The notes: generated by a model not told the origin, from the letters alone. Counted from the first letter of the stretch, positions 5,531 through 29,880 are shown. The stretch: 32,456 bases of DNA from Oscillospiraceae bacterium (GCA_030527085.1 JAUNBN010000001.1:1-32456); one strand, 5' to 3'. Numbers and translations: made by a program.

Positions 5531-5666
5531 TGTTTTCCATAAGAAAGGAGCGCTCCCGCCCTGCGTTTTTTTACTGTACGCGCTGCCTCGCCGCCTGAAA
5601 ATGGGAGAAAACCCACGCGGAGGGAGACTCCCACGCTTCTGAGAGCAGCCCTTTCGTGCTGAAGCT

Positions 5667-5705
5667 GTGTTTTGTTTTCCCTCCTTCGACGGGGAAACAG
5701 AACAC
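5667..5705 (-). repeat. Repeat-family hairpin, apparently inverted relative to the other copies
   Basis: The sequence is GTGTTTTGTTTTCCC-TCCTTCGAC-GGGGAAACAGAACAC. The arms pair at 13/15 plus two T:G pairs. The reverse complement reads CCCCGTCGAAGGAGGG, like the family core CCACCGTCGAAGGCGGGG at 24753. GGGAG.CTCCC-type termini lie nearby (5622-5632). Confidence 0.45.
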
Positions 5706-5734
5706 TAAACATTCCGGAGGCGTCCCGGTCTCTT

Positions 5735-5824
5735 GGGAGTGACCTGTAAGCGTGTAATGTGCTGTCTTTCCCCCGCCGGAGGCGGGGAAAAGACAGCGAA
5801 AAAACAACGCAACGGGACACTCCC
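5735..5824 (+). mobile_element. MITE-like palindromic element, best-preserved copy
   Basis: Termini are GGGAGTGACCT (5735) and GGGACACTCCC (5814-5824), whose reverse complement is GGGAGTGTCCC (9/11 match). The central hairpin 5761-5797 is GCTGTCTTTCCCCCGCC-GGA-GGCGGGGAAAAGACAGC. Identical 8-bp direct repeats GGTCTCTT flank it at 5727-5734 and 5825-5832. It has no coding capacity. Confidence 0.6.
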
Positions 5825-5839
5825 GGTCTCTTTTAGCGC

Positions 5840-5867
5840 TTGACATCGCCGAGCGCTGTGTTATATA
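5840..5867 (+). promoter_or_regulatory. Sigma-70-type promoter of the rpmH operon
   Basis: TTGACA (5840-5845), a 16-nt spacer, then TGtTATATA extended -10 (5859-5867). It lies 37 nt upstream of the rpmH ATG. Confidence 0.6.
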
Positions 5868-5903
5868 CTTATAAACCGCAAGGTTTTCAGCAAGGAGAAG
5901 AAA

Positions 5904-6038
5904 ATGCAACCGACTTATCATCCCAAAAAGCGCACCCGCAAGCGCGTCCACGGCTTTATGAAGCGCATGGCCACCTCCAACGGACGCAAGGTTCTTGCGC
6001 GAAGGCGCGCGCGCGGCAGGGCCCGCCTGAGCGCCTGA
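5904..6038 (+). CDS. rpmH: 50S ribosomal protein L34
   Basis: The ORF translates to [44 protein letters not shown] (44 aa). AGGAGAAG Shine-Dalgarno is present. It is too short for the ORF track. Confidence 0.95.
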
Positions 6039-6073
6039 GAGCCGCCGCAAAAGCGGAGGCTCTTATTTTTTAA

Positions 6074-6418
6074 ATGGCAGATAAAGGCCCCTCAAGGCCC
6101 ACCTCTCTCAACCGCAACTGGCAGTTCGCGCGCGCCTACAAAAGCAAAAAGCGCTTTTCCTGCGCCTATTTTACGACCTATGTGGCGCGGGGGCGCTTTG
6201 GAGTGAGGCTGGGCGTCAGCGCCTCGAAGAAGCTCGGCTGCGCGGTCAAGCGCAACCGGGCGCGCAGGATAGTCAAGGCCGCCGCGTGCGAGCTGCTCAA
6301 AAACGCGGGCGGCTCTTTCGACATAGTTTTCGTCTGCCGCGCGGCCTGTCTTGAAAAAAAGTCCACCGAGCTCATACCCCATATGAAGCGCCATCTCGAG
6401 GGCGCGGGTGTGCTTTAA
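6074..6418 (+). CDS. rnpA: Ribonuclease P protein component
   Basis: 114 aa, basic, with KKLGCAVKRNRARR (RNR motif). It follows rpmH in the conserved position. Confidence 0.9.
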   Translation: MADKGPSRPTSLNRNWQFARAYKSKKRFSCAYFTTYVARGRFGVRLGVSASKKLGCAVKRNRARRIVKAAACELLKNAGGSFDIVFVCRAACLEKKSTELIPHMKRHLEGAGVL

Positions 6419-6652
6419 ATGATAAAACGCGCGCTCGTTTTTCTGATACGCGGCTATCAAAAATATATAAGCCCTCTGCTGGGGGACCACTGCCGCTTTG
6501 TGCCCAGCTGCTCCCAGTACACTCTGGAGGCCATAGAAACCCGCGGGGTACTTATGGGCCTGCTGCTCGGCTTCTTTAGAATTTTAAGGTGTAATCCTCT
6601 GTTTAAAGGCGGCTACGATCCCGTACCACAGAGGCCGGCGCGCCTGAAATAA
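6419..6652 (+). CDS. yidD: Membrane protein insertion efficiency factor YidD
   Basis: 77 aa with [25 protein letters not shown] and RCNPL..GGYDPVP. The start abuts the rnpA stop. Confidence 0.92.
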
Positions 6653-12415: not shown

Positions 12416-12418
12416 GGC

Positions 12419-12557
12419 TGAGGGGGCAGTAAAAAGTCTAAGCAGCAGTGCCAACCGGCATGGGCTGAGAGGCAAAGTCATTATGTTCGCCCCTCCGAAG
12501 GCGGGGGTGAACAAAAAAGTCCGAGCAGCAAAGCCAACCGGTATTGGCTTAGAGAGG
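12419..12557 (+). repeat. About 1.5 tandem repeat units containing a family hairpin in the mnmG-rsmG spacer
   Basis: The hairpin GTTCGCCCCTCC-GAA-GGCGGGGGTGAAC lies at 12485-12512. The unit AAAAAGTC..AGCAGCA..GCCAACCGG.AT.GGCT.AGAGAGG occurs at 12431-12472 and 12514-12557. The first unit is preceded by a GAGGGGGCAGT half-arm. Confidence 0.5.
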
Positions 12558-12564
12558 TATCGAG

Positions 12565-13269: not shown

Positions 13270-13384
13270 AAGCGCGCTCAATATTTTTCTCCCTGCACTA
13301 AGCCAGGATATTTACCTCGGCGGAAACCTTAGATTAGCTCGCGCGGTCGGATGGGTTCCGTTCGCGCGGGATCAGCGTTCCTGA

Positions 13385-13424
13385 CCCCGCCTTTGGCGGG
13401 GGTAATGCAGCTTCAAATACCAGC
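13385..13424 (+). repeat. Repeat-family core hairpin plus tail
   Basis: CCCCGCC-TTT-GGCGGGG (13385-13401) is followed by GTAATGCAGCTTCAAATACCAGC. This parallels GGAATACCGCCTCAAATACCCGC of the 21441-21532 copy. Confidence 0.4.
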
Positions 13425-13576
13425 CTTTGAATCACTTGCGCAGCCGGTATGCTGTTGCGCCCCGGACTCGCCCGTGATATTCTAAGACAAAAGCAGCCTT
13501 GGACGGCCGCACCGTCTGCCGCGCTGTTCTTTTTTCCCGCGCGTCGGGCAGAATTATTTAAAGACAGGTTTTATTA

Positions 13577-14314
13577 ATGGGCAACGCCAAACTTAAAAGC
13601 GGCGAATATATAGCGGTGAGGGACGGCGCGGCCTTGAGCTTCGGCGGAAATCAGCGCTGGCTTGCCGAGGGAAGGCCGGAAGCTCTAGCCAAGTGCTCCT
13701 GCGGAGCCGTGGCGGCCGCCGATCTCTTTTTATATCTCGCGCGCTCGCGCCCTCAGTGGGAGAGCCCGCTTTGCGCGGCCTTTGCGCGCGCCGAAGAGCT
13801 TTCAAAGGAGGAATATCTCCGATACCTGTCCGAGGTGCTCGCTCGCTACGCGCGCCCGCTGCCCTATTTCGGCAAGACGGGCTTCGGCCTGGCGCAGGGC
13901 ATAAACCGCTATTTCGCCGAAAACCGGCTGGGACTGAAGGCCAAGTGGCGGCAGACGGCTCTCGACGGCGGCGCGCTTATGAGAATAGCGGCGCAGCTGG
14001 CGGACGACCTGCCCGTCATTCTCTCCATACCCTCCTTTCCCCTGAAAATCAAATCCCTTAATATGTACCGCCGCTCGCGCGAGGGCCGCGGCCTTACGGA
14101 CGCGCTGCGCTACAAAAACCGAAGCGGCCATTTTGTAACCGCCTGCGCGCTCGAGGACAGGGTGTTGACCGTTTCCTCCTGGGGCAAGCGCTTTTATCTC
14201 GACTGTGAAGAATACCTGCGCGCGGCGCGGCTGCCCGCCGGGCTTATCTCCTGCGGCTATATGACGCTCGAGGAAAGAGCGTCAAGAACAGCTCTGATTG
14301 GCGAAGGCTTATGA
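13577..14314 (+). CDS. Hypothetical protein, possible papain/C39-like Cys-His fold (weak)
   Basis: 245-aa ORF with coding-like composition. CSCGAVAAADLFLYL and a later SGHFVTA resemble Cys and His motifs of C39-like peptidases. The stop overlaps the next start (ATGA). Confidence 0.6.
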   Translation: MGNAKLKSGEYIAVRDGAALSFGGNQRWLAEGRPEALAKCSCGAVAAADLFLYLARSRPQWESPLCAAFARAEELSKEEYLRYLSEVLARYARPLPYFGKTGFGLAQGINRYFAENRLGLKAKWRQTALDGGALMRIAAQLADDLPVILSIPSFPLKIKSLNMYRRSREGRGLTDALRYKNRSGHFVTACALEDRVLTVSSWGKRFYLDCEEYLRAARLPAGLISCGYMTLEERASRTALIGEGL

Positions 14315-14916
14315 AAGCGCATAAATACGAGCTGCTGCTGGCGGCGGTAATAGCCGCGAGAGCTACCTCATTTATATTCAGCAAAATAGTCCTTCAAACG
14401 ATGGAGACTTTCAATCTGCTCGCAATAAGGTGCTTGCTGGCCTTTTTTCTTTTGCTTATTGTTTTCCGCAAAAAAATCCCGCAGATTAAAAAAGGTGAGA
14501 TTGTTGCCGGGATTATTGTCGGAGCTCTGTACTATCTCACTATAGCGAGCGAGCTTACCGCGCTCAAGACAACAGCTTCCTCTACGGTAGCCCTTCTGGA
14601 AAACTGCGCCATCATCTTCGTGCCTTTGTTTACCTCGATCCTTTGCAAAAAGCCTTTGGAAAGTACAACTATAATAAGCGCGTCTGTCGCCATGTTGGGG
14701 GTATTCTGCCTGACCGCCCAGTTCGGTGGGCTGTCGCCCGGTCTTGTTTTCGGCCTGCTTTCCGCCGTCCTTTATGCCTCCGCCATCATAGTGACGGAAA
14801 AAATCACCCACAGGGAACTTGACCCCTTTTGTATCGGCATCGTTCAGGTCGGAACGACGGCGGGGGGGAAGACATCGAAAAATCCACGCGGCGGGTCACA
14901 CCCTGCTTCAGCTTGA
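14311..14916 (+). pseudogene. Truncated EamA/DMT-family transporter (first EamA domain only)
   Basis: About 178 aa of EamA-like hydrophobic repeats, ending near ..RELDPFCIGIVQ. The reading frame then runs into a repeat-family half-copy (14859-14903), giving the non-membrane tail VGTTAGGKTSKNPRGGSHPASA. Full-length EamA proteins have two such domains. Confidence 0.55.
14859..14903 (+). repeat. Right half of a MITE-like element fused to the truncated EamA ORF
   Basis: GGCGGGGGGGAAGACATCGAAAAATCCACGCGGCGGGTCACACCC aligns with the right half of copy 5781-5824 (GGCGGGGAAAAGACAGCGAAAAAACAACGCAACGGGACACTCCC). No left arm is present. Confidence 0.5.
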
Positions 14917-14936
14917 GGTATCCGCGTTTTTACCGC

Positions 14937-15287
14937 TTAAACTACCTCTCTCAGCAGCTCCTCCGCGGAGATTTTGTAGAGCTTTGCGAGCGCCAGCAGG
15001 TTCGAGGTGCTGGGGTCGGAAAGCCCCTGCTCCCATTTCGAGACCGCCTGGCGGCTCACGCCCAGAGCCTCGGCCACAAACTCCTGCGTCATTTTGCACT
15101 CAGTGCGCCGCTTTTTCAGCGCCTCTCCGAGCGACTGCTTGACAGCGGCTTTCTCTTCCCTCACGTCTTTGGAGCGCAGATACTTGAGCAGCGCCCTTAT
15201 CACAAGAGTCAGAAGAAAGACAAAGAGAGCGGCTGCGAGCAGAATAAAAACGAACATCAATACGCTTGCTGATGCGTTTACTTTCAT
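14937..15287 (-). CDS. Membrane-anchored XRE-family HTH regulator (N-terminal TM helix, C-terminal HTH)
   Basis: The ATG at 15287 is preceded by AAGGAGG. The protein starts MKVNASASVLMFVFILLAAALFVFLLTLVI (TM). It then has the HTH_3-like LKKRRTECKMTQEFVAEALGVSRQAVSKWEQG. The longer 184-aa track ORF lacks a Shine-Dalgarno. Confidence 0.8.
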   Translation of the reverse strand: MKVNASASVLMFVFILLAAALFVFLLTLVIRALLKYLRSKDVREEKAAVKQSLGEALKKRRTECKMTQEFVAEALGVSRQAVSKWEQGLSDPSTSNLLALAKLYKISAEELLREVV

Positions 15288-15355
15288 TTTAAACACGCCT
15301 CCTTTCAGTGCTTCAAGCTTAGCACGGTCGGCGGTTGCCTTAAAGCAAGTATGGC

Positions 15356-15370
15356 GCAACTTCAAGTTGC
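15356..15370. promoter_or_regulatory. Perfect palindrome, candidate XRE operator
   Basis: GCAACTT-C-AAGTTGC abuts a minus-strand TAAAAT (-10-like, 15371-15376) upstream of the XRE gene. Direct repeats GCCT(T)AAAGCAAGT flank it at 15337-15350 and 15395-15407. Confidence 0.4.
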
Positions 15371-15503
15371 ATTTTAGGTGAAACGGCTTTATGAGCCTAA
15401 AGCAAGTCTGTATCTCCGTTTTTTGCCAGTATAGCACAAAGACCCTTCGGCGCAAGGGCGGGATTGCGCGCCGAACGCGGTGATTTCCCACGTCAGCAGG
15501 GCC

Positions 15504-15610: not shown

Positions 15611-15622
15611 CAGCGTAAAGCC

Positions 15623-18880: not shown

Positions 18881-18883
18881 GGC

Positions 18884-20403: not shown

Positions 20404-20420
20404 CGCCTTGCCTTTCAAAA

Positions 20421-20445
20421 ATTGTGTATATGGTGTATACACAAT
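20421..20445. promoter_or_regulatory. Perfect inverted repeat, candidate YtrA/GntR operator
   Basis: ATTGTGTATA-TGGTG-TATACACAAT overlaps the -10 and the predicted transcription start of the ABC operon promoter. Confidence 0.55.
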
Positions 20446-20471
20446 ATAACACTATGCTCGCGCTCTGTCAA
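20443..20471 (-). promoter_or_regulatory. Sigma-70-type promoter of the ABC/GntR/cdd cluster
   Basis: On the minus strand: TTGACA (20471-20466), a 17-nt spacer, TATATT (20448-20443). Confidence 0.6.
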
Positions 20472-20617
20472 GCCCGGGGAAAATATTTCCAATGAAAACG
20501 ACGCCCTTCTTTTATTAAAATGGAAATTTGCGGGAGCGAACCGAAAGCGGGTTCAACGCTGCATTTACCCCGATGAAGGCGCCATGGCATTTAAGCTCGG
20601 GCGGCGAAACAGCCTCT

Positions 20618-20742
20618 GTGTTCCGGCTCGGCTGTGCGTGCTTTTTAGGGTGTATCCCCACGTTTTTGGCGCGGGGATACACCCTAAGCTAATGACATTG
20701 GGGAAATATAGTGAACAAAGGCGCTCACCGGGTACGCTCCCT
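20618..20742 (+). repeat. MITE-like repeat copy immediately upstream of the recombinase gene
   Basis: The left end is GTGTTCCGGCTCGGCTGTGCGTGCTTTTTAGGG. The perfect 15-bp hairpin is TTAGGGTGTATCCCC-13 nt-GGGGATACACCCTAA (20645-20687). The right end is GGGTACGCTCCCT (20730-20742). Confidence 0.5.
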
Positions 20743-20769
20743 GATTTTGACTTTAAGGGGAAAGAGGGA

Positions 20770-21360
20770 ATGCAGACTTACGGCTACGCGAGGGTATCGA
20801 CAAAGGAGCAGAACGAGGACCGCCAGCTTCTGGCGCTCAAGGAATTCGGCGTAAAGCCGCGCAATATCTATACGGACAAGCTCTCGGGCAAGGACTTCGA
20901 GCGCCCGCAGTACAAGCGGCTGCTTAAAAAGCTGCGCGATGGCGATGTGGTGGTGATACACTCCATAGACCGCCTCGGGCGCAACTACAGCGAGATTTTG
21001 GAGCAGTGGCGGATAATAACCAAGGAAAAAGGCGCGCACATGGTAGTTCTCGACATGCCCCTGCTGGATACTCGCCGCCGCGAGGAGAACCTCACGGGCA
21101 TGCTTATTGCAGACATAGTTTTGCAGCTGCTCTCCTATGTTGCGCAGACGGAGCGCGAGGCGATTCGCAAGCGTCAGCGTGAGGGAATAGCGGCCGCGCG
21201 GCTTCGCGGGGTTAAGTTCGGAGCGCCCGGCAAGGAAACTCCCGAGGAGTTCTACATACTGCGCGAGCAGTGGAGGCGCGGCGAAATTTCCGGCCGCGAG
21301 GCAGCCCGCAGGCTGGGCATAGCCGCCCAGACCTTCACGCGCTGGTGCGAGGAGAGGTAG
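20770..21360 (+). CDS. Small serine recombinase (resolvase/invertase family)
   Basis: MQTYGYARVSTKEQNEDRQ catalytic N-terminus, DRLGRN motif, C-terminal HTH GREAARRLGIAAQTFTRW. AAAGAGGGA Shine-Dalgarno precedes the ATG at 20770. The 312-aa track ORF is an upstream read-through. Confidence 0.9.
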   Translation: MQTYGYARVSTKEQNEDRQLLALKEFGVKPRNIYTDKLSGKDFERPQYKRLLKKLRDGDVVVIHSIDRLGRNYSEILEQWRIITKEKGAHMVVLDMPLLDTRRREENLTGMLIADIVLQLLSYVAQTEREAIRKRQREGIAAARLRGVKFGAPGKETPEEFYILREQWRRGEISGREAARRLGIAAQTFTRWCEER

Positions 21361-21406
21361 GCTTTACGAAAGCGCGCAAATCGGCTGCAGCTCCGCTTCG
21401 CAGCAT

Positions 21407-21433
21407 AAAAAAGCCGCCTAAAGAAGGCGGCTT
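21407..21433 (-). terminator. Intrinsic terminator (minus-strand polarity)
   Basis: On the minus strand, AAGCCGCC-7 nt-GGCGGCTT is followed by TTTTTT. It lies ~155 nt downstream of the lipoprotein stop, with a repeat copy in between. Confidence 0.6.
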
Positions 21434-21440
21434 AGCAGGT

Positions 21441-21532
21441 AGGGAGTGTCCCTATTGCGCGCTTTTTGCGGTATTCCCCCGCCGAAGGCGGGGGAATACC
21501 GCCTCAAATACCCGCTTTTAGGGCCGCTCCCT
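21441..21532 (+). mobile_element. MITE-like palindromic element, well-preserved copy
   Basis: Termini are AGGGAGTGTCCC (21441-21452) and GGGCCGCTCCCT (21521-21532). The perfect 16-bp hairpin is GCGGTATTCCCCCGCC-GAA-GGCGGGGGAATACCGC (21468-21502). The whole element folds as one long imperfect palindrome. Flanks TAGCAGGTA and TGGCAGCTA match 7/9. Confidence 0.6.
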
Positions 21533-21588
21533 GGCAGCTATAATGGCTGTGATATGTATTAAAACATTAAAAACTTCAAAATCTTCTT

Positions 21589-22200
21589 TCAAGTATTGAC
21601 CTGAAAGGTGAAATCCTCGGAATAGAGCTCCTCGTAAACGGTGGAATACAGCGCGGAGTGGGCGAAGGCCTCGGGCAGGTCCCCGGCTACGGCGGCGCGG
21701 ATATAGCGGTATTCGCCGTTGTAGCTCGTGCCCAGCGCCGTGCCGTAGTCCGCGGCGCTCTCGCTCTCGTGCAGACAGTCTATTTTGAGAATAAGCGCGC
21801 TTGTGCCGCTTTCGCTGTCGCGCAGGTAGAACATAAACTGCCTCAGGCCGCCCGAGGCGTTTATGACGAGCTCAAGATTGTCCGCGTTCCAGCCCGGCGG
21901 CAGCAGAAAGCTGAACTCCTCGCCTTTAAAGTAGGGCCAGTCCACCGCGTAGCGCATATTTTCCGTGAAAGCCAGGCTCTCCTCGCTTTGCTCCTCCGCC
22001 TTATAGACCGGCAGGGTCAAAACGAGCTTCTCGCGCTCGGGCAGCGCCGCGCTGGGCGGCGCTTCGGGCAGCAGCTCGCCGCCGCCGAAGCTCTCGGGGC
22101 TGACATAGGCTGAAACGTCGTTCTCAGTTGTGCCCGAGCAGCCCGCGAAAAGCAGGCAGGAGAAAAAGAGCGCGAGCGCCGAAGTCGGGGCTTTTTTCAT
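21589..22200 (-). CDS. Putative lipoprotein, function unknown
   Basis: The ATG at 22200 gives MKKAPTSALALFFSCLLFAGC, a signal peptide with lipobox. The upstream part of the 265-aa track ORF is Arg/Pro-rich and non-coding-like. Confidence 0.75.
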   Translation of the reverse strand: MKKAPTSALALFFSCLLFAGCSGTTENDVSAYVSPESFGGGELLPEAPPSAALPEREKLVLTLPVYKAEEQSEESLAFTENMRYAVDWPYFKGEEFSFLLPPGWNADNLELVINASGGLRQFMFYLRDSESGTSALILKIDCLHESESAADYGTALGTSYNGEYRYIRAAVAGDLPEAFAHSALYSTVYEELYSEDFTFQVNT

Positions 22201-22235
22201 ATGCAAAGACCGCCTTTTAAGCTTATATCGGCAAG

Positions 22236-22264
22236 ATTTTAGCATAAAGCCGCCCGCATGGCAA
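22236..22264 (-). promoter_or_regulatory. Promoter of the lipoprotein gene
   Basis: On the minus strand: TTGCCA (22264-22259), a 17-nt spacer ending in TGc, TAAAAT (22241-22236). This is an extended -10 arrangement. Confidence 0.55.
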
Positions 22265-22300
22265 CGCCGCGGCCGCGGGGGAGCGCCTCTTTTGAGTGCT

Positions 22301-23329
22301 TTAGGCCGCGCCGGAGGCATTTTTGGGATAGCAGGCCCAGAGCGCCTGGGCGCTGTTTTCCGAGAGCATATAGCTCGTGTCCTCAAGATAGAGCCCCTCG
22401 AGGCGCAAGGCGAGATAGCCTCCCTCTCCCGAGGCCGCGGCGGCCTCTAAAGTGCGGTTGAGGGCGTAAAGACCGCCGCCGTTTATGTCGGTAGTCAGCG
22501 AGACGAGGTTTTCCGTATAAAAATCGCTGAGCTCCTCCGCCAGCTCCTTTGAGCGGTATTCCTCCCAAGCTGCGGCAAAGAGCCTTTCAAAGAGCTCGGT
22601 TCTCTCCTCTCCCTTGTGCGGCGCATTCAGCAGGAGCTGACGCAAATCGTTGCCGCAGAATGAGGAGGTGCCCCTATGCTTGCTGTATTCTACTATCCCG
22701 CTCGCGCCGTAAACCTCGAAATCCCTGTCCAGCGAGAAGCGAAACTCGCCCAGGCTGTCCGCAAGCTCGCTCAAAAGCCCGGCGGAAAGGCAAAGGGAGC
22801 CATCTATATTTACCTCCAGTGTTTCCCTCAGCGCGGCCTCGAGGCCGAAAAGCCCTTTTGCGGCGAATATATCCTCAGCCCCATAGGGCCGCCCGCCGTC
22901 GAGCAAGGTGGTTTCGCGGGGGATATCGGTAAAGATAAGGCGGCGCTCGTCAGCGTCCGCGCGCAGCAGGCAGAGTCCGAGGGCCCGGCCCTCCTCCTCG
23001 ACTGCCGCGAGCAGGGTGTAGCCGCCGCTCACGCTGATTGGCACCTTTTCAGCCGACTGCGAAACCTCCTCAGCGCCGCCGAAAGAGCCTGTAAGGTCGT
23101 AGCCCACTATGAGCGTGCCCAGGCAGAGCGGAATAGTTATTGCCAAAGTTGCGAAGAAGCCCTTTAAGAAATCCATGTGCGCGCGCCTTTTTTGCTCGTG
23201 CGGCTCCTCCTCCCCCAGCAGCGCGTTTACGTCCGCGCTTATATCGAAAAGGGGAGCGTGGCCGCGCGGCCCCGCCGCTTCTGTGAAATCGGGCAGCTCC
23301 TCGGGCTCGAAATAGTCTTTTTCCGTCAT
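22301..23329 (-). CDS. Membrane-anchored protein with degenerate LytR-CpsA-Psr (LCP)-like domain
   Basis: It has a cytoplasmic N-terminus and one TM (FFATLAITIPLCLGTLIVGY). LLRADADERRLIFTDIPRETTL and LEVNIDGSLCLSAGLLSELADSLG resemble the LCP core (R.D..m...SIPRD, ..id.yv...f..lvdalGG). Confidence 0.6.
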   Translation of the reverse strand: MTEKDYFEPEELPDFTEAAGPRGHAPLFDISADVNALLGEEEPHEQKRRAHMDFLKGFFATLAITIPLCLGTLIVGYDLTGSFGGAEEVSQSAEKVPISVSGGYTLLAAVEEEGRALGLCLLRADADERRLIFTDIPRETTLLDGGRPYGAEDIFAAKGLFGLEAALRETLEVNIDGSLCLSAGLLSELADSLGEFRFSLDRDFEVYGASGIVEYSKHRGTSSFCGNDLRQLLLNAPHKGEERTELFERLFAAAWEEYRSKELAEELSDFYTENLVSLTTDINGGGLYALNRTLEAAAASGEGGYLALRLEGLYLEDTSYMLSENSAQALWACYPKNASGAA

Positions 23330-23411
23330 TTGCAGCACCGCCGTTAGTGTTTGCTGGCAGTATTGCCCGCCGCGCGGCGACTTATGCGCGGCAGGGCTGG
23401 AAATTGCGGGG

Positions 23412-23497
23412 GAGCTGTCGTATTGCCCGCCATTTTATCAGGGTAGCCCCCCGGAAGGGTGGAGCTACCCTGAAAAGTACGCATAATCGAGCTGGGA
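23412..23497 (+). repeat. MITE-like repeat copy
   Basis: The hairpin is CAGGGTAGC..GCTACCCTG (23439-23472) with a CCGGAAGGG core. The tail CTGAAAAGTACGCATAATCGAGCTGGGAAAC is the reverse complement of the GTCCCAGCTCGAATGCGCGTGC left end seen at 17901. GTATTGCCCGCC is duplicated at 23360 and 23420. Confidence 0.45.
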
Positions 23498-23546
23498 AAC
23501 ATGAGTGGCGATGGATATGGCTAAAAGCGCGAAAACAGGTTTTGGT

Positions 23547-24656
23547 CTAAAGCAGCTCCGCCTTGCGCGCGCGGCCGAAGGCGTCCGCGGCTAGCATCGC
23601 GTTGTAGAGCTCCTTGGCGCCCACGGGGAAGCTGTGATTATTCGTGAAAGCGCCCTCTCCGGTGTTGTTTTCGCACCACTGCATTATGCGCTCTCTTTCA
23701 ACGCCATGCATGGAGAGATCCTCAAAGCAGACCGCGAGGCCTACGGAGGCCATAAAGTCCACCACCTCGTAGACCTCGTCCATCTCAACGTCGGGGTCGA
23801 GCATGAACTGCGTTACTATGCCGAAGGCAACCTTTTCGCCGTGCATGGCGCCATGCGCCTCGGGGAAGGCGGTGAGGTTGTTGCCGAGCTGGTGAGCCGT
23901 AGCGAGACCGCCGCTCTCCCAGCCCACGCCCGAAAGCAGCGTGCAGGCTTCTACCACCCGCTCAAAGGAGGGGTTCACCACCCCGGCGCTCACAGCTGTG
24001 AGGGCTGCGTCCGTGTCCTCAAGCAGGGTGTCGAAGCAAATACGCGCGAGCGCCATGGCTGTCATTGTGGGCGCGCCGCCGCTGCTCGCGGGGCTGTGCT
24101 TGCGGTTCGCGGCGCGAGCCTCGATATAGGTCGCCAGCGCGTCGCCTATGCCCGCCTTGAGCATCTTCTCCGGCGCTAGAACCATAATCCCGGTGTCTAC
24201 GATAATAGCGTCCGGATTGACCGGCCAGAGGTCGAAGCCAGTGCAGACTCCCTCGGACGAGTACCAGACGGTGCAGGCCGAGGTGGGCGCGTCGCTCGAG
24301 CAGACGGTGGGGCAGATTATGACCCGCAGCCCCAGATGCGCGGCCGCCGCCTTTGAAATATCAAGACATTTGCCGCCGCCGAGACCCACTACGATGTCGC
24401 AGCCCTGCTCGCGGATGGCGGCCTCAATGGCGGAGCACTGCTCCTTGGAGCACTCGCCCTCAAAGGCCCACTCGGCAGAATCAAGCCCCCTTTCCTTAAG
24501 CGAGCCCAGAACGAAATCGCCGGAGGCCGCGCGGGTTCGCTTTCCCCAAACCAGCATAGGCTTGGAGGCTCCGTAGGTCTTCGTTATTTCTCCTATCTCT
24601 TCAAGAACACCCTCGCCCTGAATGTATTTGGGCGGGAAAATAATAGCTTTTTTCAT
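23547..24656 (-). CDS. gldA: Glycerol dehydrogenase (Fe/Zn-ADH superfamily)
   Basis: MKKAIIFPPKYIQGEGVL..GGGKCLDISKAAA..; about 369 aa. The ATG at 24656 has an AAGGAG Shine-Dalgarno 8 nt upstream. The track start at 24662 is a GTG. Confidence 0.85.
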   Translation of the reverse strand: MKKAIIFPPKYIQGEGVLEEIGEITKTYGASKPMLVWGKRTRAASGDFVLGSLKERGLDSAEWAFEGECSKEQCSAIEAAIREQGCDIVVGLGGGKCLDISKAAAAHLGLRVIICPTVCSSDAPTSACTVWYSSEGVCTGFDLWPVNPDAIIVDTGIMVLAPEKMLKAGIGDALATYIEARAANRKHSPASSGGAPTMTAMALARICFDTLLEDTDAALTAVSAGVVNPSFERVVEACTLLSGVGWESGGLATAHQLGNNLTAFPEAHGAMHGEKVAFGIVTQFMLDPDVEMDEVYEVVDFMASVGLAVCFEDLSMHGVERERIMQWCENNTGEGAFTNNHSFPVGAKELYNAMLAADAFGRARKAELL

Positions 24657-24680
24657 CGGCACATCTCCTTAATACTCATT

Positions 24681-24830
24681 TAAGCTATTTTAACACAGGG
24701 AGGGCTTTTAAATTCGTGAGTTCCAAAAGGGCAGCGTTCAATAGTGTCTTGCCACCGTCGAAGGCGGGGGCAAGACACTGAAAAACGCAAGTAAGCTATT
24801 TTAACCACGCGGAGGACTTTTAATTCGCGG
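24681..24830 (+). repeat. 71-nt repeat-family element (24721-24791) bracketed by ~40-bp direct repeats
   Basis: DR1 is TAAGCTATTTTAACACAGGGAGGGCTTTTAAATTCGTGAG (24681-24720). DR2 is TAAGCTATTTTAACCACGCGGAGGACTTTTAATTCGCGG (24792-24830), about 80% identical. Between them lies the hairpin AGTGTCTTGCC..GGCAAGACACT (24743-24779) followed by CTGAAAAACGCAAG. Confidence 0.5.
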
Positions 24831-24897
24831 CCGCCGCACGCCTTTCCGCTTTCGGGCATAAAATGAGTGTGCAAAAAAACAAGGCAGGCGGTGCTTT

Positions 24898-25962
24898 ATG
24901 GCTTATCAATACTATCTCGGCGCTACATCTCCGGGCGGCTTCGCGGGCTTTTTCGATACGCTCGCTTCCGGCGAGAAGCTGAAGCTTTATATCATCAAGA
25001 GCGGGCCGGGCAGCGGAAAATCCTCCCTGATGAAAAGGCTGGCGGCGCGGCTTGAGAGCAGGGGGCTTTCGCGGGAGCTGATCCGCTGCTCGAGCGATCC
25101 GGACTCTCTGGACGGCCTCATCTGCCGCGAGCGGGGCTTTGCGATAATAGACGGAACAGCACCGCATGTGGTGGAGCCCTCTATTCCCGCCGCGCGCGAG
25201 CGCGTGCTTTCTCTTTACGACACGATAGACTCGGCCGCGCTCTCCCAGAAGCTGACGCGGCTCGAAAGCCTCTTCTCTCAAAACGCGGCGCTGCACGCGC
25301 GCGCAAAGAGCTTTATAGCGGCGGCGGGCTCTCTCGCCCGCGACCTTATGCGCGCCGCCACGGGCTGTTTTTATGAGGATAAGGCACGGCGCTACGCGCG
25401 CTCCCTCGCCGCAAAGCTCCTGCCGCCTCTGGGCGGCGAAGGGGGAGCGGAGAGACTTCGAGTCTTGAGCGCCGCTACTCCCAAGGGGCTTTACGGCTTT
25501 GCCGCGGAAAACGCCTCCCTCTGCGAGCGCGCCTACGTCTTTGACGACCGCTTCGGCGCTCTGGCCGCGCTGCTGCTGTCCGAAATCAGGGACGCGGCGC
25601 TCAGGGCGGGCTACGGGTTTACAGCCTGCCGCAGCTTCCTCAACCCCTACGAAAGCATCGACGCGCTCTTTTTTGAGGAGCAGTCCCTCTGCTTTATAAA
25701 CGGCGCGCTTCTGGACACAGAACTCCCTCATGCAAAAAGAATACGCGACGCGCGCTTTTACAGCGTCGAAAGCCTTGCGGGAAAGGCAAAGCGCTTAAGC
25801 TTTGAAAAAAAGGCGGCGCGCTCGCTTTTGGAAGAGGCGGCGCGGCTGCTGGCCGAGGCGAAGGCGGTACACGACGAGATAGAGAGCCACTACAGCGCCG
25901 CGGTAGATTTCGAACTGCTGCGCGAGCGCGAGGAAAAGCTGTATATAGAACTGGGGGTATAA
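24898..25962 (+). CDS. Uncharacterised P-loop NTPase
   Basis: 354 aa with Walker A SGPGSGKSSL near residue 35 and a probable Walker B region AIIDGTAPH. No further recognisable domain. Confidence 0.75.
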   Translation: MAYQYYLGATSPGGFAGFFDTLASGEKLKLYIIKSGPGSGKSSLMKRLAARLESRGLSRELIRCSSDPDSLDGLICRERGFAIIDGTAPHVVEPSIPAARERVLSLYDTIDSAALSQKLTRLESLFSQNAALHARAKSFIAAAGSLARDLMRAATGCFYEDKARRYARSLAAKLLPPLGGEGGAERLRVLSAATPKGLYGFAAENASLCERAYVFDDRFGALAALLLSEIRDAALRAGYGFTACRSFLNPYESIDALFFEEQSLCFINGALLDTELPHAKRIRDARFYSVESLAGKAKRLSFEKKAARSLLEEAARLLAEAKAVHDEIESHYSAAVDFELLREREEKLYIELGV

Positions 25963-25977
25963 CGGAAGGAAATAAAA

Positions 25978-25989
25978 TTCGGTACCGAA
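25978..25989. promoter_or_regulatory. MarR operator candidate 1 (perfect 12-bp palindrome)
   Basis: TTCGGTACCGAA lies immediately upstream of the -35. An identical copy is at 26026-26037. Confidence 0.6.
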
Positions 25990-25993
25990 ACTA

Positions 25994-26022
25994 TTTACAA
26001 ACACAGCGGGTTCTGATATAAT
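25994..26022 (+). promoter_or_regulatory. Sigma-70-type promoter of the MarR gene
   Basis: TTTACA (25994-25999), a 17-nt spacer, TATAAT (26017-26022). Confidence 0.65.
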
Positions 26023-26025
26023 AGC

Positions 26026-26037
26026 TTCGGTACCGAA
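26026..26037. promoter_or_regulatory. MarR operator candidate 2 (perfect 12-bp palindrome)
   Basis: TTCGGTACCGAA lies 4 nt after the -10, covering the expected transcription start. Confidence 0.6.
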
Positions 26038-26052
26038 ATAAATTATAAAGGA

Positions 26053-26691
26053 ATGATAGTTTTGACTCAGGATATCAAATTGATGCTTTTATTGAGGCGG
26101 CTGCAAATGCAGGGTCTGCGAGGTGGCTGCTGCGGCAAAGGCAGGAGAGGAGAGGGCTTTGACGGCCTCGCCCCGGACGAAAGAGACCGCGAGCGCGCAC
26201 TTGAGGAGCGCGAGGGTGAGGAATTCCGGCACTGCCGCCGCCGCGGCGGTCACGGCCCCGAGGGCGGCCCTCACGGAGAACACTGCCATCATCACGGCGA
26301 GCCCGGCCCCGGGGGCTGCAGGAAAGACAGCCGCGGCTTCGGGCCGCAGGGCCCGCACAAGCCCGGCCGCGACAGGCTGCTGGCCCTGCTGGCAGAGGAG
26401 GACGGCATAGCCCAGCGCGAGCTGCTCGAGAGGGCGGACATACGCCCCTCCTCGCTCTCCGAGGCGCTGGACAAGCTCCAAAAGGAGGGTCTAATCGAGC
26501 GCCGGGAAAACAGCGATGACCGCCGCGAAAGCCTCGTCTTTTTAACCGAGGACGGCCGCGCCCTCGCAGTTCGAATGCAGGAGAGGCTGGCCGCGCGCGC
26601 CGAAGCGCTTTTCGCACCCTTGAGCGAGCAGGAAAAAACTCAGCTCTTTGAGCTTTTGAACAAACTGCTCGAAACAGAGCGCGGGGTATAG
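26053..26691 (+). CDS. MarR-family regulator with His/Cys/Gly/Arg-rich N-terminal extension
   Basis: The C-terminal ~115 aa are a MarR wHTH (RLLALLAEEDGIAQRELLERADIRPSSLSEALDKLQKEGLIERRENSDDRRE..). The N-terminal part contains CCGKG..HCRRRGGHGPEGGPHGEHCHHHGEPGPGGC. The start is uncertain: the ATG at 26107 (GAGG Shine-Dalgarno, 9-nt spacing) or 26083 may be used instead of 26053. Confidence 0.8.
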   Translation: MIVLTQDIKLMLLLRRLQMQGLRGGCCGKGRRGEGFDGLAPDERDRERALEEREGEEFRHCRRRGGHGPEGGPHGEHCHHHGEPGPGGCRKDSRGFGPQGPHKPGRDRLLALLAEEDGIAQRELLERADIRPSSLSEALDKLQKEGLIERRENSDDRRESLVFLTEDGRALAVRMQERLAARAEALFAPLSEQEKTQLFELLNKLLETERGV

Positions 26692-26714
26692 CCGCTGCTC
26701 ACCATGAATAATAA

Positions 26715-26747
26715 ATACCCGCCGAAGGAAAGACTTTCGGAGGGTAT
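26715..26747 (+). repeat. Hairpin related to the repeat family, downstream of marR
   Basis: ATACCC-GCCGAAGGAAAGACTTTCGG-AGGGTAT contains the family motifs AAATACCCGCCGAAGG. No T-run follows. Confidence 0.35.
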
Positions 26748-26769
26748 CTTATAGGTAGTTAACTTTTTC

Positions 26770-26872
26770 GGGTGTGGTCTGTAAGCGTGTAGAATGCTGC
26801 ACTCCCCCCACCGAAGGCGGGGAGCAGCCTGAAAAATCCGCCTGGCATTAATGCCTGAGGCACTGGCGGGAC
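26770..26872 (+). repeat. MITE-like repeat copy
   Basis: GGGTGTGGTCTGTAAGCGTGTAGAATGCTG parallels GGGAGTGACCTGTAAGCGTGTAATGTGCTG of copy 5735. The hairpin is GCTGCACTCCCCCCACC-GAA-GGCGGGGAGCAGC (26796-26828). The tail is CTGAAAAATCC, palindrome GGCATTAATGCC, then ..GGCGGGAC. Confidence 0.45.
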
Positions 26873-26887
26873 GTGAAGCGGGTTTCC

Positions 26888-28048
26888 TCAGCGGTCGAGC
26901 AGCCAGCTTCCGCTGAAGGCTTCGCTCTGGCTCTCGTCCAGAAACTGACTCTCGACAATAGCGCGGCACTCCTCGAAGCCGAAGCCGCCCAGGGCGCGCT
27001 TGGCGTTCTTGTTGGTGGCCGTGCGCTCGATTATCGTTTCGCAGGCTTCGCGCGAGACGCTTACATTATTTATAGTGAGCTTGTCCAGCATGGCGTAAAG
27101 CGGCGCTTCGCCGCCCGTTATATCGAGCAGCTGCTTTTTCCAGAGCTCGGGCGCAGATTTGAGCGAGTGCTCGACAAAGGCCTTTTCAAAGACGGCGCAG
27201 GCAACGCCGTGCGGGAAGATGCCCGCCTCGGTGAACGGATAGCCCGCGGGGTGAGGGAAGCCCGCGCCCGCGCCGGCCAGAGCGAAGCCTCCCCAGAGCG
27301 AGCCGTGGTAGAGGTCCTCGCGCAAGGCTTCGTCCTGAAGGCTGTAATTGCCCGAGGCTATCTCGACGAGCCTGGGGTAGACCAGCTCCACGCCGCGCCG
27401 CGAAAAGAGCCGAGAGGTTTCCGAGGAGTTTTTGGAAAACCAGCTCTCGAGGCAGTGGCAGAGCGCGTCGAGGCCGGTAGAGACAGTCTGCCTCAGGCTC
27501 ATGCTCAGTGTGTAGCCATAGTCGCAGAAGGCGTAGCGCGCGAACATAAAGGGCTTGGAAACGCTCTTTTTAAGACCCGTCTCATCGTCGGTAAGCACCG
27601 AGACCGCGTCCACCTCGCTGCCCGTGCCCGCCGTCGTGCCTATGGTAACGAGGGGCAGGGCGCTTTCGAACTCGAGCTTGTAGATGTCGCGCGGATTCTC
27701 GAACTCATTCACCGCAAAGACGCACGAGGCGCGCGCGCCGTCCAGCGCCGAGCCGCCGCCTATGCCTATTATGAAATCCGCGCCGTTTTCCCTCGCCGCA
27801 GCTCCCGCCTTCGCGCAGACGGAGACGAGAGGGTTCTCGCCCATGCCGTCGAAAAGCTCGTAGGAAACGCCGGCCTCGCCGAGCGCTGCGGCGATATCGT
27901 CGAGAGCGCCGCTCTTTTTGGCCGAGCTCTTTCCGGTTATAATAAGCGCGCGGCTGCCCAGGTTCTTTAAAAGCTCCGGGGCCTTTTCGCGGACGGCTCC
28001 TCTGCCGCCTATTATCCGGGTGGGCAGGTAAAAATTGAATGCTTCCAT
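26888..28048 (-). CDS. Iron-containing alcohol dehydrogenase family protein
   Basis: MEAFNFYLPTRIIGGRGAV.. with GIGGGSALDGARA. The ATG at 28048 has an AAGGAGG Shine-Dalgarno. The track start at 28093 is a GTG without a Shine-Dalgarno. Confidence 0.88.
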   Translation of the reverse strand: MEAFNFYLPTRIIGGRGAVREKAPELLKNLGSRALIITGKSSAKKSGALDDIAAALGEAGVSYELFDGMGENPLVSVCAKAGAAARENGADFIIGIGGGSALDGARASCVFAVNEFENPRDIYKLEFESALPLVTIGTTAGTGSEVDAVSVLTDDETGLKKSVSKPFMFARYAFCDYGYTLSMSLRQTVSTGLDALCHCLESWFSKNSSETSRLFSRRGVELVYPRLVEIASGNYSLQDEALREDLYHGSLWGGFALAGAGAGFPHPAGYPFTEAGIFPHGVACAVFEKAFVEHSLKSAPELWKKQLLDITGGEAPLYAMLDKLTINNVSVSREACETIIERTATNKNAKRALGGFGFEECRAIVESQFLDESQSEAFSGSWLLDR

Positions 28049-28190
28049 AAGCGCCTCCTTAATTGTCAGCAATTTGATTTTTGAGAGCGTCACGATTTCG
28101 AGGACTTATCTATTATTTGTAATATATCACATTCCCCGGTTTTTGTATATTTAAAAAGACCCGGAAGCGCCCCTGTCGCGCTCATTTTGC

Positions 28191-28228
28191 ATTCCCCAAG
28201 CCCGGGGGATGCGGCCTCAAATACCCGC
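28191..28228 (+). repeat. Repeat-family hairpin plus tail
   Basis: ATTCCCC-AAGCCC-GGGGGAT is followed by GCGGCCTCAAATACCCGC. The same CCTCAAATACCCGC tail occurs at 21502-21515. Confidence 0.4.
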
Positions 28229-28262
28229 ATTCGGAACGCTTCGGGGGAAAGTGTTTGAACCC

Positions 28263-28340
28263 GCGCTTCCCCCCGCCGAACAAGTATCATAGAATAAGGG
28301 CGCTTCCACCGCCGAAGAAGGAGGAGCTGCCCTGAAAACA
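28263..28340 (+). repeat. Half copy plus degenerate full hairpin of the repeat family
   Basis: GCGCTTCCCCCCGCCGAA (28263-28280, left arm only). Then GGGCGCTTCCACCGCCGAAGAAGGAGGAGCTGCCC (28298-28332), followed by TGAAAACA. Confidence 0.4.
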
Positions 28341-28405
28341 GGGGAATGGCCGAATGAGTGTGATTTTGCTGTGTATCTCCGCCTTTGGACAGCCGGAAAG
28401 CTTCT

Positions 28406-28485
28406 AAGAGTGTGTTAAGCTCCGGTTCTCTCCGCCGAAGGCGGGGGGACCGGAGCGCAAATTCCACGCTGAACGGGACACTTCC
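28406..28485 (+). repeat. MITE-like repeat copy
   Basis: The left end is AAGAGTGTG. The hairpin CTCCGGTTCTCTCCGCC-GAA-GGCGGGGGGACCGGAG (28420-28455) is paired apart from two T:G pairs and one bulge. The tail is CGCAAATTCCACGCTGAACGGGACACTTCC. Confidence 0.55.
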
Positions 28486-28548
28486 GAAAATGCGTATGTT
28501 TGAACAGAAAACAGGGAGTAAAGGCGCGCGGCCCCTTCGATTCGCTTT

Positions 28549-29676
28549 TTAAGCCCTGTTATTTTTTACCCTGTATAAATCCCGGTCGGCTCTTCCGATT
28601 AAATCCTGCTGGTTTTTGACATCCGGCGTGTAGAGGGCATAGCCGATGCTGGCGCTTAAGGGATAGGGGAAGTCAGCGTCTTTAAACATTTCGCGGATTT
28701 CCTCGCAGACGCTTTCTATGGAAACGGGAGCCTCGAGCTCGCAGACGGCGACAAACTCGTCCCCGCCGTAGCGGCAGACGAAATAATTGCTGTTTTCGCA
28801 GACCTTTCTAAGACAGTTTGCGGCCGCAACTAAAGCGCGGTCGCCCTCGATATGCCCGTGGCGGTCGTTTATCTGCTTGAAGTAGTCCAAGTCAATTAAC
28901 AGGAGGTAGAGCGGCTTGTCCCCGCTCGGGTGCGCCAGCTTTGTAGAGAGGTATTGAAAGAGTTGGCTTCTGTTGTTGAGCCTCGTCAGGGGGTCGAGCG
29001 AAATCATCTGCTCCTGCATACTTAAATATACAAAGAGAATGCCAAAGGTGTTGCCGACGCAAAGGATAGGCAGCTGAGGGAAGGCCACCTGCAACACGCC
29101 CGCCAGCAGCGTTGGCAATACGAAGACGGCCAGCGCCCTGAGCTGAGTCTTTTTGCGGTAGTTCTCGGTGTGCAGGGAGGAGATAAAGGCCTTTGCGGCG
29201 GTAAAAACTACATATCCGTAGGATAAAAAGAGCTGCAGGGAATAGGCCGGGCCGCGGTGATACCTGTTGGCGGAGTCAATATAGAAAATCCAGCCGGTTT
29301 TGAAGGAAATGAGGATAAGCGCAGCGAGCGCGGCAAACGGGAGAAAGGAAAGAAGGTGTAGACGCTTATTGCGTATCAGGGAAGACTCCTGAAGCGTCTC
29401 CGAGTATTCAAACCAGGAAAAGGCCAGGTAACCGCAGAGGGTATAATAGCAGGCGTTAAGCCCCCAATTGGCGGCTATAGTTGCTTGTATAATGTCTCTG
29501 TCTACAAAGACCCAGGCCGTGTCGAGCAGGAGGAAGAGGATATTAAGGGCTATGAATCGGTGGAACAGGCGGCTGTGCGTTTCGTAGTGGGCGAATTTTT
29601 TGTGCTTGAGGCCCGGCAGCGAGAGAAAAAGACAGCAGACGAGATTGACCTCCGCGTAGAGATAAGCGCTGTTCAT
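28549..29676 (-). CDS. Membrane-bound diguanylate cyclase (GGDEF domain)
   Basis: 375 aa with about 6 N-terminal TM helices, then a GGDEF domain with RYGGDEF and DLDYFKQINDRHGH. AAGGAGG Shine-Dalgarno is present. Confidence 0.92.
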   Translation of the reverse strand: MNSAYLYAEVNLVCCLFLSLPGLKHKKFAHYETHSRLFHRFIALNILFLLLDTAWVFVDRDIIQATIAANWGLNACYYTLCGYLAFSWFEYSETLQESSLIRNKRLHLLSFLPFAALAALILISFKTGWIFYIDSANRYHRGPAYSLQLFLSYGYVVFTAAKAFISSLHTENYRKKTQLRALAVFVLPTLLAGVLQVAFPQLPILCVGNTFGILFVYLSMQEQMISLDPLTRLNNRSQLFQYLSTKLAHPSGDKPLYLLLIDLDYFKQINDRHGHIEGDRALVAAANCLRKVCENSNYFVCRYGGDEFVAVCELEAPVSIESVCEEIREMFKDADFPYPLSASIGYALYTPDVKNQQDLIGRADRDLYRVKNNRA

Positions 29677-29822
29677 CTGCGGCCTCCTTTACAGAATTAC
29701 CCGCGGCTTGCTTTAAAGCCCGCGGCAACAAAAACCCAACCTGCATATTTTGCCCAAATTATACCATGCGCTGTGCCGGATTACAACTTGTTTCGGGGAA
29801 AATCAATATGAGAGCAGAGCTT

Positions 29823-29880
29823 CGCTTCGCGCATTCAGCGCGGCTTGGGACGGGGGCGGCGCCGAAAGACAGCAAAATAA
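29823..29880 (+). repeat. Degenerate repeat-family fragments
   Basis: GCTTCGCGCATTCAGCGCGGCTTGGGAC (reverse complement resembles GTCCCAGCTCGAATGCGCG). It is followed by GGGGGCGGCGCCGAAAGACAGCAAAATAA, which resembles the right arm plus tail GGCGGGGAAAAGACAGCGAAAAAA. Confidence 0.3.

Follow-up and report, generated by a model that had tools for sequence, protein, structure and literature searches.

We analysed a 32,456-nucleotide stretch of DNA from an Oscillospiraceae bacterium (GCA_030527085.1, JAUNBN010000001.1:1-32456; hereafter the window) and, within it, a family of short palindromic repeats that occupies the intergenic spacers. Pfam and NCBIfam scans of 30 open reading frames (ORFs) identify the window as a chromosomal replication-origin region with Firmicutes gene order, in which recF, dnaN and dnaA are followed by the block from rpmH to rsmG and then by parA and parB (Table 1). 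The G+C content is 57.8%, and 15.9% of the window is intergenic. Between rsmG and parA lies a 16.6-kb gap of accessory genes (13270-29928), which encode EamA and helix-turn-helix (HTH) proteins, a 655-amino-acid (aa) protein of unknown function, a GntR regulator with an ABC transporter, a serine recombinase, two Fe-ADH proteins, and MarR and GGDEF proteins. Ten of the 12 solid copies of the repeat sit inside this accessory stretch.

Scanning the whole window with a covariance model (CM) of the family, R1, with filters off, returned 12 distinct loci at E<=2e-6 (5738-5828, 13345-13421, 14831-14907, 15537-15611, 17891-17972, 20610-20700, 21438-21535, 23429-23508, 24719-24804, 26773-26847, 28159-28240 and 28401-28489), E-values that are not independent because these loci were the training sequences. 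The structure in R1 was transferred from one copy (copy A), and RNAalifold run on the raw MAFFT alignment gave no structure. Independent support came from pairs detected by BLAST and repeat finding and from two members outside the window (L037 and L072), which were found by a pattern scan though they are also in the R1 seed. Many pairs of intergenic spacers share 70-84% identity that reaches past the GC-rich hairpin, in agreement with the repeat family that the initial annotation had placed here: copies A and B (5735-5801 and 26770-26836) are 73% identical over 67 nt, copies I and J (17898-17940 and 20617-20659) 84% over 43 nt of arm sequence, copies F and G 80% over 44 nt, and copies F and H 81% over 37 nt, with copy I 78% identical to copy K. 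A hidden Markov model (HMM) of the family, searched with nhmmer, scored the window copies at E=7e-17 to 2e-3. Two short strings also recur: CCGCCGAAGGCGG with at most one mismatch occurs 9 times against 0.3 expected, and GGGACACTCCC with at most two mismatches 16 times against 6.3 expected.

The initial annotation had listed 17 positions and counted at least 15 copies, of which the HMM and CM searches retain 12 solid ones. At the other five lie only generic hairpins or remnants of marginal standing, with no CM match or one at E>=0.05: 5667 is a separate hairpin (E=0.56), 12485 shares the core hairpin alone (E=0.07), 28263 corresponds to 28296-28338 (E=0.054), and neither 26715 nor 29823 has a CM match, the latter by eye a possible degenerate 3' half. 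Eleven of the 12 copies are intergenic, and the twelfth, copy M, forms the 3' end of ORF 14311-14916. The statement that nearly every intergenic spacer is occupied holds from 12.4 to 28.5 kb, where almost every spacer of at least 100 nt carries a copy, but not for the three spacers at 1-5.4 kb, which carry none. Seven copies lie on the plus strand and five on the minus strand, and convergent, divergent and tandem spacers are all occupied, so the orientation of the copies is unrelated to the direction of transcription.

The intact unit is exactly 90 bp long, has no coding capacity and ends in terminal inverted repeats (TIRs) of 10-11 bp, GGGAGTGTCC(C) ... GGGACACTCCC. Oriented by its tail, it reads 5' to 3' as the TIR GGGAGTG.CC, the arm (T)GTAAGCGKGTAWTTGARGC, a GC-rich hairpin (typically CCCCGCC-GAA-GGCGGGG), GCGAAAAA..CGC.. 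and the TIR GGGACACTCCC; the inner arms are AT-rich and partly complementary. Copies A and F and the two outside members match the TIR at 8-10 of 10 positions at each end, and the TIRs are degenerate in D, B, E and M. Within the window A and F are intact and D almost complete; the 5' arm, the hairpin or both survive in B, C, G and H, E and M are 3' halves, and I, J and K make up a sub-family whose end reads (CA)TGTGTCCCAGCTCG...GCTTTTTAGGG. Near-full-length copies fold at -36 to -70 kcal/mol, and the ORFs overlapping copies read through them and have no family matches. Two intact copies alongside about ten truncated or diverged ones, at 70-84% identity, fit the earlier description of an old, diversifying family. 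The modules that had seemed shuffled between copies are explained by the two orientations (7 plus, 5 minus), by the half-copies (E, M, G and H) and by the different end of sub-family I/J/K.

Four copies have both ends intact: A and F in the window, L037 in an Oscillospiraceae metagenome-assembled genome (MAG; JAAWBF01) and L072 in a Clostridia MAG (CANCXY01). Each spans exactly 90 bp, TIRs included, and in all four direct repeats abut the ends in register (Table 1). By simulation over 18 registers, the chance per element of a perfect 8- or 9-mer is P=1.2e-4, and that of at least 7 matches in 9 is P=0.01. The duplication can be counted as 8 or 9 bp because the last C of the TIR fits either assignment, element or repeat. 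TIRs at both ends of a 90-bp unit together with in-register direct repeats are the signature of transposition through staggered cuts by a DDE transposase, that is, of a MITE (miniature inverted-repeat transposable element). We regard it as very probable that the repeats are MITEs, non-autonomous DNA transposons.

Table 1. Repeat copies, flanking direct repeats (target-site duplications, TSDs), genes and related elements. Positions are those of the window unless another contig is named.
Feature	Position	Strand	Sequence or structure	Score, identity or remark
recF, dnaN, dnaA	1441-5386	-		Pfam/NCBIfam
rpmH, rnpA, yidC, jag, mnmE, mnmG, rsmG	ending 13269	+		Pfam/NCBIfam; rpmH read by eye
Possible 3'-half remnant, marginal	5598-5632	+	GAGAAAACCCACGCGGAGGGAGACTCCC; GGGAGACTCCC matches the TIR with 1 mismatch	CM E=0.52; resembles tails of E and M by eye
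TSD of copy A	5727-5734 (left), 5825-5832 (right)		GGTCTCTT / GGTCTCTT	8/8
Copy A, intact 90-bp MITE	5735-5824	+	GGGAGTGACC ... hairpin 5760-5796 ... GCGAAAAAACAACGCAACGGGACACTCCC	CM 87.5 bits; nhmmer 7e-17; fold -57.6 kcal/mol; TIR 9/10 and 10/10
rpmH	5904-6038	+	promoter-like TTGACA...TATA pair upstream, 5840-5869	read by eye
Hairpin L, membership marginal	12485-12512	+	GTTCGCCCCTCC GAA GGCGGGGGTGAAC	only the core hairpin in common; CM E=0.07
Copy G	13345-13437	-	hairpin 13385-13403 and 5' arm GGCTGGTATTTGAAGC; outer TIRs lost	CM 36.6 bits
Copy M, 3' half only	14831-14907	+	TCGAAAAATCCACGCGGCGGGTCACACCC	supplies last codons and stop of ORF 14311-14916; CM 31.4 bits
Copy E, degenerate hairpin and 3' half	15537-15611	+	GCGAAAAACCCGCGCGGCGGAACACTCTC	CM 46.4 bits
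Copy I, sub-family I/J/K	17891-17972	-	end CATGTGTCCCAGCTCGAATGCGCGTGCTTTTTAGGG, then hairpin	CM 35.8 bits
Copy J, sub-family I/J/K	20610-20700	-		upstream of serine recombinase gene; CM 43.8 bits
Small serine recombinase, resolvase/invertase type	20779-21360	+	193 aa	flanked by copies J and F; overlooked in the initial annotation
TSD of copy F	21433-21441, 21532-21540	+	TAGCAGGTA / TGGCAGCTA; in element orientation TAGCTGCCA / TACCTGCTA	9 nt, 7/9
Copy F, intact 90-bp MITE	21442-21531	-	plus strand GGGAGTGTCCC ... hairpin 21465-21499 ... GGGCCGCTCCC	CM 66.3 bits; fold -69.7 kcal/mol
Copy K, sub-family I/J/K	23429-23508	+		CM 34.4 bits
Copy C	24719-24804	+	inner arms and hairpin; outer TIRs absent	CM 46.3 bits
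Copy B	26770-26847	+	left TIR GGGTGTGGTC, arm GTAAGCGTGTAG, hairpin, A-run; 3' end disrupted	CM 47.9 bits
Copy H, 5' arm and degenerate hairpin	28159-28247	-	GCGGGTATTTGAGGC	CM 32.3 bits
Copy D, near full length	28401-28489	+	right TIR GGGACACTTCC; left TIR degenerate, AAGAGTGTG	CM 62.6 bits; fold -44.9 kcal/mol
parA and parB	29929-31671
TSD of L037			GTGGACAG / GCGGACAG	7/8
TSD of L072			TTTCTGTT / TTTCTGTT	8/8; left end without two G
Insertion sequence on contig L099, 858 bp	623-1480 of L099		ends GGGAGTGGACAAAAC... and ...GTTTGGACACTCCC

A candidate partner came from a scan for distant TIR pairs, 0.3-4 kb apart, in all 203 sequences collected, which pointed to a metagenome contig (L099) that had been retrieved solely for a family-type 3' tail. 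The scan gave only four pairs, with flanks matching at no more than 3 of 8 positions; one pair, the one inspected, marks the ends of a combined insertion sequence (IS) and MITE on L099. The IS on L099 carries an InsA-like ORF of 102 aa with a zinc finger/HTH and an overlapping DDE_Tnp_IS1 ORF of 186 aa, the latter matching Pfam PF03400 (DDE_Tnp_IS1) at 29 bits against a cutoff of 24.1. The two ORFs cover positions 1-87 and 83-199 of the NCBIfam model transpos_IS1, below the NCBIfam cutoff. Their overlap holds an A8C run, as at the IS1 frameshift site, and a frameshift would join the two products. Eight nucleotides from the IS lies a TIR-bounded element of 243 bp (372-614 of L099), which contains hairpin-plus-A-run modules like those of the family; R1 gives its last 81 nt a score of 26 bits. 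For neither member of this pair is the target duplication clean, a pattern suggestive of nested insertions or of insertions side by side.

Homologues of the L099 DDE ORF number 247; several are labelled IS1 family transposase, and most lie on contigs of about 1 kb, as expected of repeats. Three loci chosen by protein identity alone yielded elements of 856 and 857 bp and one right end, with the termini GGGAGTGTCC, GGGAGTGGGC, GGGAGTGGCC and GGGAGTGGAC. In all, GGGAGTG(T/G)NC ends are found in IS1-family elements of four independent contigs (L099, L203, L204 and L205), GGGAGTG stands at both ends of the three complete copies, the element (856-858 bp) has an A-run at the ORF overlap, and one copy (L203) is flanked by a perfect repeat of 9-10 bp, TACCCTTTGT. 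GGnnnTG ends and duplications of 8-9 bp are traits of the IS1 family, and the MITEs described here show both, with the termini in the form GGGAGTG. A published member of the family has the TIR GGTGGTG... and 8-bp TSDs (PMC6382973). With their ends aligned, the IS and the MITE are identical over the outer 10 nt, GGGAGTG(T/G)NC, and share little beyond. A search of 72,556 plasmids with the IS transposase (tblastn) found no match. The segment between copies F and K was also considered as an autonomous element and rejected: its ORFs (21589-23338) resemble a lipoprotein and a membrane-anchored protein rather than a transposase.

These observations fit a model in which a DDE transposase, supplied in trans, would recognise the ends of the non-coding 90-bp unit and move it, with insertion through staggered cuts producing the 8-9 bp duplications. 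The most likely source of the transposase would be a small Clostridia IS1-family element of about 857 bp with the same GGGAGTG... ends. Most of the window copies would be old, having been cut down to one arm, diverged to 70-84% identity or drifted into the variant sub-family I/J/K, and the copies are presumably now largely immobile in this genome. They would persist in intergenic DNA because insertions are tolerated there. Taken as a whole, the statement that the repeats are MITEs with an IS1-type IS as mobilising partner is probable, if less secure than their identity as MITEs. The link between IS and MITE draws on short termini, duplication length and one adjacency, with every IS copy on another contig; we consider it likely.

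Several points weigh against this model. The duplication is seen in only four intact copies, and its length is ambiguous (8 or 9 bp). No pair of filled and empty orthologous sites was found among relatives, which offer no alignable spacers, the databases holding no close relative. Sub-family I/J/K has no recognisable second TIR. As the initial annotation had noted, none of the 30 ORFs in the window encodes a transposase, so IS and MITE do not occur together there, and no duplication was found around the IS copies of L099 and L204. The ends of IS and MITE share only about 10-11 terminal nucleotides and a weak CGTGT further in, and nothing in the IS corresponds to the inner arms and hairpin of the MITE. 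The real partner could therefore be some other IS whose tips are alike. Finally, the compensatory upkeep of the central hairpin, described below, is unexplained by the simple decay of a selfish element.

One alternative is that the MITEs are moved by another IS family that makes 8-9 bp duplications, such as the IS256, ISL3, IS66, IS6 or IS1595 types, and that the match to IS1 tips is coincidental. The confinement of that match to the outer 10-11 nt and the lack of any IS in the window are compatible with this, and the inner module GTAAGCG resembles the canonical terminus of the IS66 family. Against it, four IS1-family copies, retrieved independently, share the GGGAGTG tip, one of them lies 8 nt from a family-like element, and the TIR-pair scan of 203 sequences offered just the four pairs described above. 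We judge another IS family to be an unlikely source of mobility, and the sequence comparisons favour an IS1-type element as the one that mobilises these MITEs.

The central hairpin raises a separate question. Its covariation score is 0.136 against 0.083 in shuffles; none of 500 shuffles scored as high, and the score lies above all slid controls. Pairing within a copy reaches 87.5%, against 65% across copies, while the 5' arms are 53% identical in pairwise comparison. The source of this covariation (n=16 hairpins) could be selection for the hairpin, concerted evolution of the arms or several palindromic master copies. In addition, hairpin L (12418-12564) and copy C (24671-24827) are bracketed by direct repeats of 46-50 nt with 78-80% identity, at copy C of 46 nt (24671-24716 and 24782-24827); at both sites the second repeat starts in the A-run directly after the hairpin. 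The repeat at hairpin L includes the rsmG ribosome-binding site, and that at copy C a TGnTAAAAT resembling an extended -10 element of the Fe-ADH gene on the minus strand. These look like local tandem duplications with a junction at the hairpin rather than footprints of transposition. The hairpin may thus not be inert, being either an exapted DNA or RNA element or part of an undescribed hairpin-dependent step in IS1-type mobilisation or local duplication, an idea to which we give little weight; if it were true, the exapted role would be that of a protein-binding site, an mRNA stabiliser or a replication-linked hairpin.

A further reading is that the family itself is a functional RNA or transcription signal, such as a terminator, an attenuator, or a small RNA or leader family. 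Stable folds and compensatory variation in the central stem are what such a family would show. Against this, no Rfam family matches at the gathering threshold, orientation is independent of gene direction, and the flanking duplications point to insertion. Intrinsic (Rho-independent) terminators in particular are excluded: the 42 terminator-like sites of the window include no central hairpin, the stem is followed by an A-run rather than a T-run, neither strand presents a stem followed by a U-tract, and separate canonical terminators adjoin copies F and I. A functional RNA or signal is accordingly a very improbable account of the family.

The initial annotation had called the repeats MITE/REP-like, and it is the MITE half that stands, on the 90-bp length, the TIRs, the 8-9 bp duplications and the matching ends of IS1-family elements. 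Repetitive extragenic palindromes (REPs) are 20-40 nt long and have neither TIRs nor TSDs, and their conserved 5' tetranucleotide is the recognition site of a Y1 HUH enzyme; the window units show none of these features. REPs or bacterial interspersed mosaic elements (BIMEs), maintained by a RAYT (Y1 HUH) acting on single-stranded hairpins, would share with our family the dense, GC-rich extragenic hairpins in both orientations, and the loop reads GAA or GGA on the plus strand in 8 of 9 core matches. This strand bias was considered as a sign of single-strand (HUH) processing and rejected, since it vanishes once the loops are related to element orientation: the loop varies relative to the arms, reading TTC in F and L037 and TAC and TGC in L072. 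Nor does HUH-mediated spread of REPs, or of IS200/IS605-type elements, produce 90-bp units with both TIRs and 8-9 bp duplications, and no RAYT or HUH domain was found in the window ORFs (Pfam/NCBIfam). An origin as REPs is therefore hardly credible.

Equally hard to credit is the proposal that the serine recombinase at 20779-21360 uses the repeats as sites of recombination or inversion (invertons, or res/hix-like sites). The alignment of that protein to the Mpi master-invertase model runs from one end to the other, at 49 bits against a cutoff of 272; its matches to Mpi invertase and IS607 models are weak and all far under cutoff. Its gene lies between two copies of the same orientation (J and F), and the loop of copy F is inverted relative to the arms. 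But nearly all spacers in the region carry copies, so flanking is expected by chance; only some 70 bp separate the inverted repeats, 8-9 bp duplications are not a product of serine recombinases, and the elements in L037 and L072 have no such gene nearby. Integron attC sites were rejected outright, as the genes lie on both strands, many are 300-650 aa long, Pfam and NCBIfam scans found no tyrosine integrase, and inspection of the element ends revealed no core-site pattern (RYYYAAC...GTTRRRY).

Outside the window, across the genome collection, the pattern AAAAA..CGC..GGGACACTCCC gave 73 single matches, about the number expected by chance, of which only L037, L072 and L039 are real members. The family is thus present in two other Clostridia/Oscillospiraceae MAGs, one represented by L037 and the other by L072 with L039; L072 holds three copies or fragments in 2.7 kb. 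The same pattern matched at least 120 metagenome loci, and among the matches listed essentially all are due to chance except L099; two matches in the viral collection were both chance. No member turned up in about 97 kb from the nearest available relatives (L074-L078, L199 and L200), which were reached through homologues of the 655-aa protein and MnmG and show neither synteny around the copies nor alignable spacers. This patchy, lineage-restricted distribution fits mobile DNA. The contig of L072 ends, at about 2690-2734, in an Illumina adapter, AGATCGGAAGAGC, followed by a G-run, which is an assembly artefact in the deposited record.

BLAST searches with copies A and F found no match among plasmids and phages, and Rfam 15 gave no match at the gathering threshold and only unrelated weak ones at E<=5. 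The one overlap with a copy below threshold, anti-hemB at 21405-21495 (23.9 bits against 49.5, E=0.14), is at chance level. Literature searches on MITEs in Oscillospiraceae or Ruminococcaceae and on the TIR strings found nothing relevant. These results are consistent with the earlier statement that the family was previously unannotated, a claim that cannot be proved. The family appears undescribed; the kind of element, selfish MITE DNA, is ordinary.

The source of the window is an uncultured lineage with no close sequenced relative, since no exact match to three of its proteins is on record and the best homologues of two window proteins are only about 76-77% identical; the named homologues belong to Oscillospiraceae, Ruminococcaceae or other Clostridia. 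For mnmG the identity to the closest relatives, those lacking synteny and alignable spacers, is about 76-80%. In one of them (L199) about 1.7 kb, containing only a ParB/Noc-like gene, separates rsmG from parA, and in another (L200) rsmG and serS are about 8 kb apart with no parA called.

Other features of the window were noted along the way. A perfect 23-nt inverted repeat at 29961-30025 holds two parS-like palindromes, TGTTCCACGTGGAACA, and a weak Rfam match to 'mir-2009' is this same palindrome. Because it sits just upstream of the P-loop domain of ParA, the true start of parA is probably downstream of the listed 29929. At the far end, 32067-32456 is 83% identical to the seryl-tRNA synthetase gene of L200, so a plus-strand serS running off the window is likely; the listed minus-strand ORF 31686-32417 is probably spurious. 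DnaA boxes (TTATCCACA, at most one mismatch) form no cluster in the dnaA-rpmH spacer (5387-5900) or anywhere close to dnaA. The seven window matches lie dispersed through coding DNA, and oriC could thus not be placed. A separate perfect hairpin lies by copy E (15520-15550). The minus-strand ORFs 5512-5820 and 5571-6050 traverse repeat copies, have no family matches and are almost certainly not genes; the true gene at this place is rpmH (5904-6038, plus strand). ORF 14311-14916 encodes a half-size EamA-type transporter with a single EamA domain, whose last 28 or so codons and stop come from copy M; a breakpoint associated with the MITE may have truncated or extended this gene.

Compared with known systems, the candidate parent is, like IS1, a very small IS with InsA-like and DDE_Tnp_IS1 ORFs and an A-run resembling the A6C site of IS1. 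It differs from enterobacterial IS1 in that its transposase belongs to a distant clade, with 29 bits to the Pfam model. The MITE retains only the tips of the IS and none of its coding capacity; its interior has no detectable IS counterpart, and mobilisation by an IS1-type transposase is a proposal drawn from the ends. In form the family recalls Correia/NEMIS elements of Neisseria, ERIC/IRU of enterobacteria, RUP of Streptococcus pneumoniae and Nezha of cyanobacteria, which are likewise imperfect palindromes of about 100 bp with TIRs and short duplications, dense in intergenic DNA, present in full-length and truncated forms and able to form long hairpins if transcribed. It shares no sequence similarity with them, has a different inferred parent family and lives in an uncultured Oscillospiraceae host; the target duplication of Correia and RUP is TA, unlike the 8-9 bp seen here. 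For Nezha, too, an IS sharing the TIRs was found in another species (PMC3184786). The window units differ from REPs and BIMEs in having 90 bp with TIRs and TSDs, and in the absence of HUH/RAYT domains from the window ORFs.

To our knowledge, IS1-family-derived MITEs are scarcely documented in Firmicutes. The pairing of IS and MITE extends the catalogue a little and changes no concept. In practice, such elements break metagenome assemblies, create spurious ORFs (for example 5571-6050), can truncate or extend genes (as copy M may have done at the end of ORF 14311-14916) and adjoin promoters, copy A lying 15 bp upstream of the -35-like TTGACA (5840) of rpmH. Copies may in this way affect neighbouring genes. 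Because they break assemblies, make false ORFs, alter genes and adjoin promoters, a model of the family improves annotation, and it can serve as a lineage marker. A conspicuous repeat of poorly known gut Clostridia thereby gains a testable identity, that of a probable IS1-type MITE with defined ends, length and duplication.

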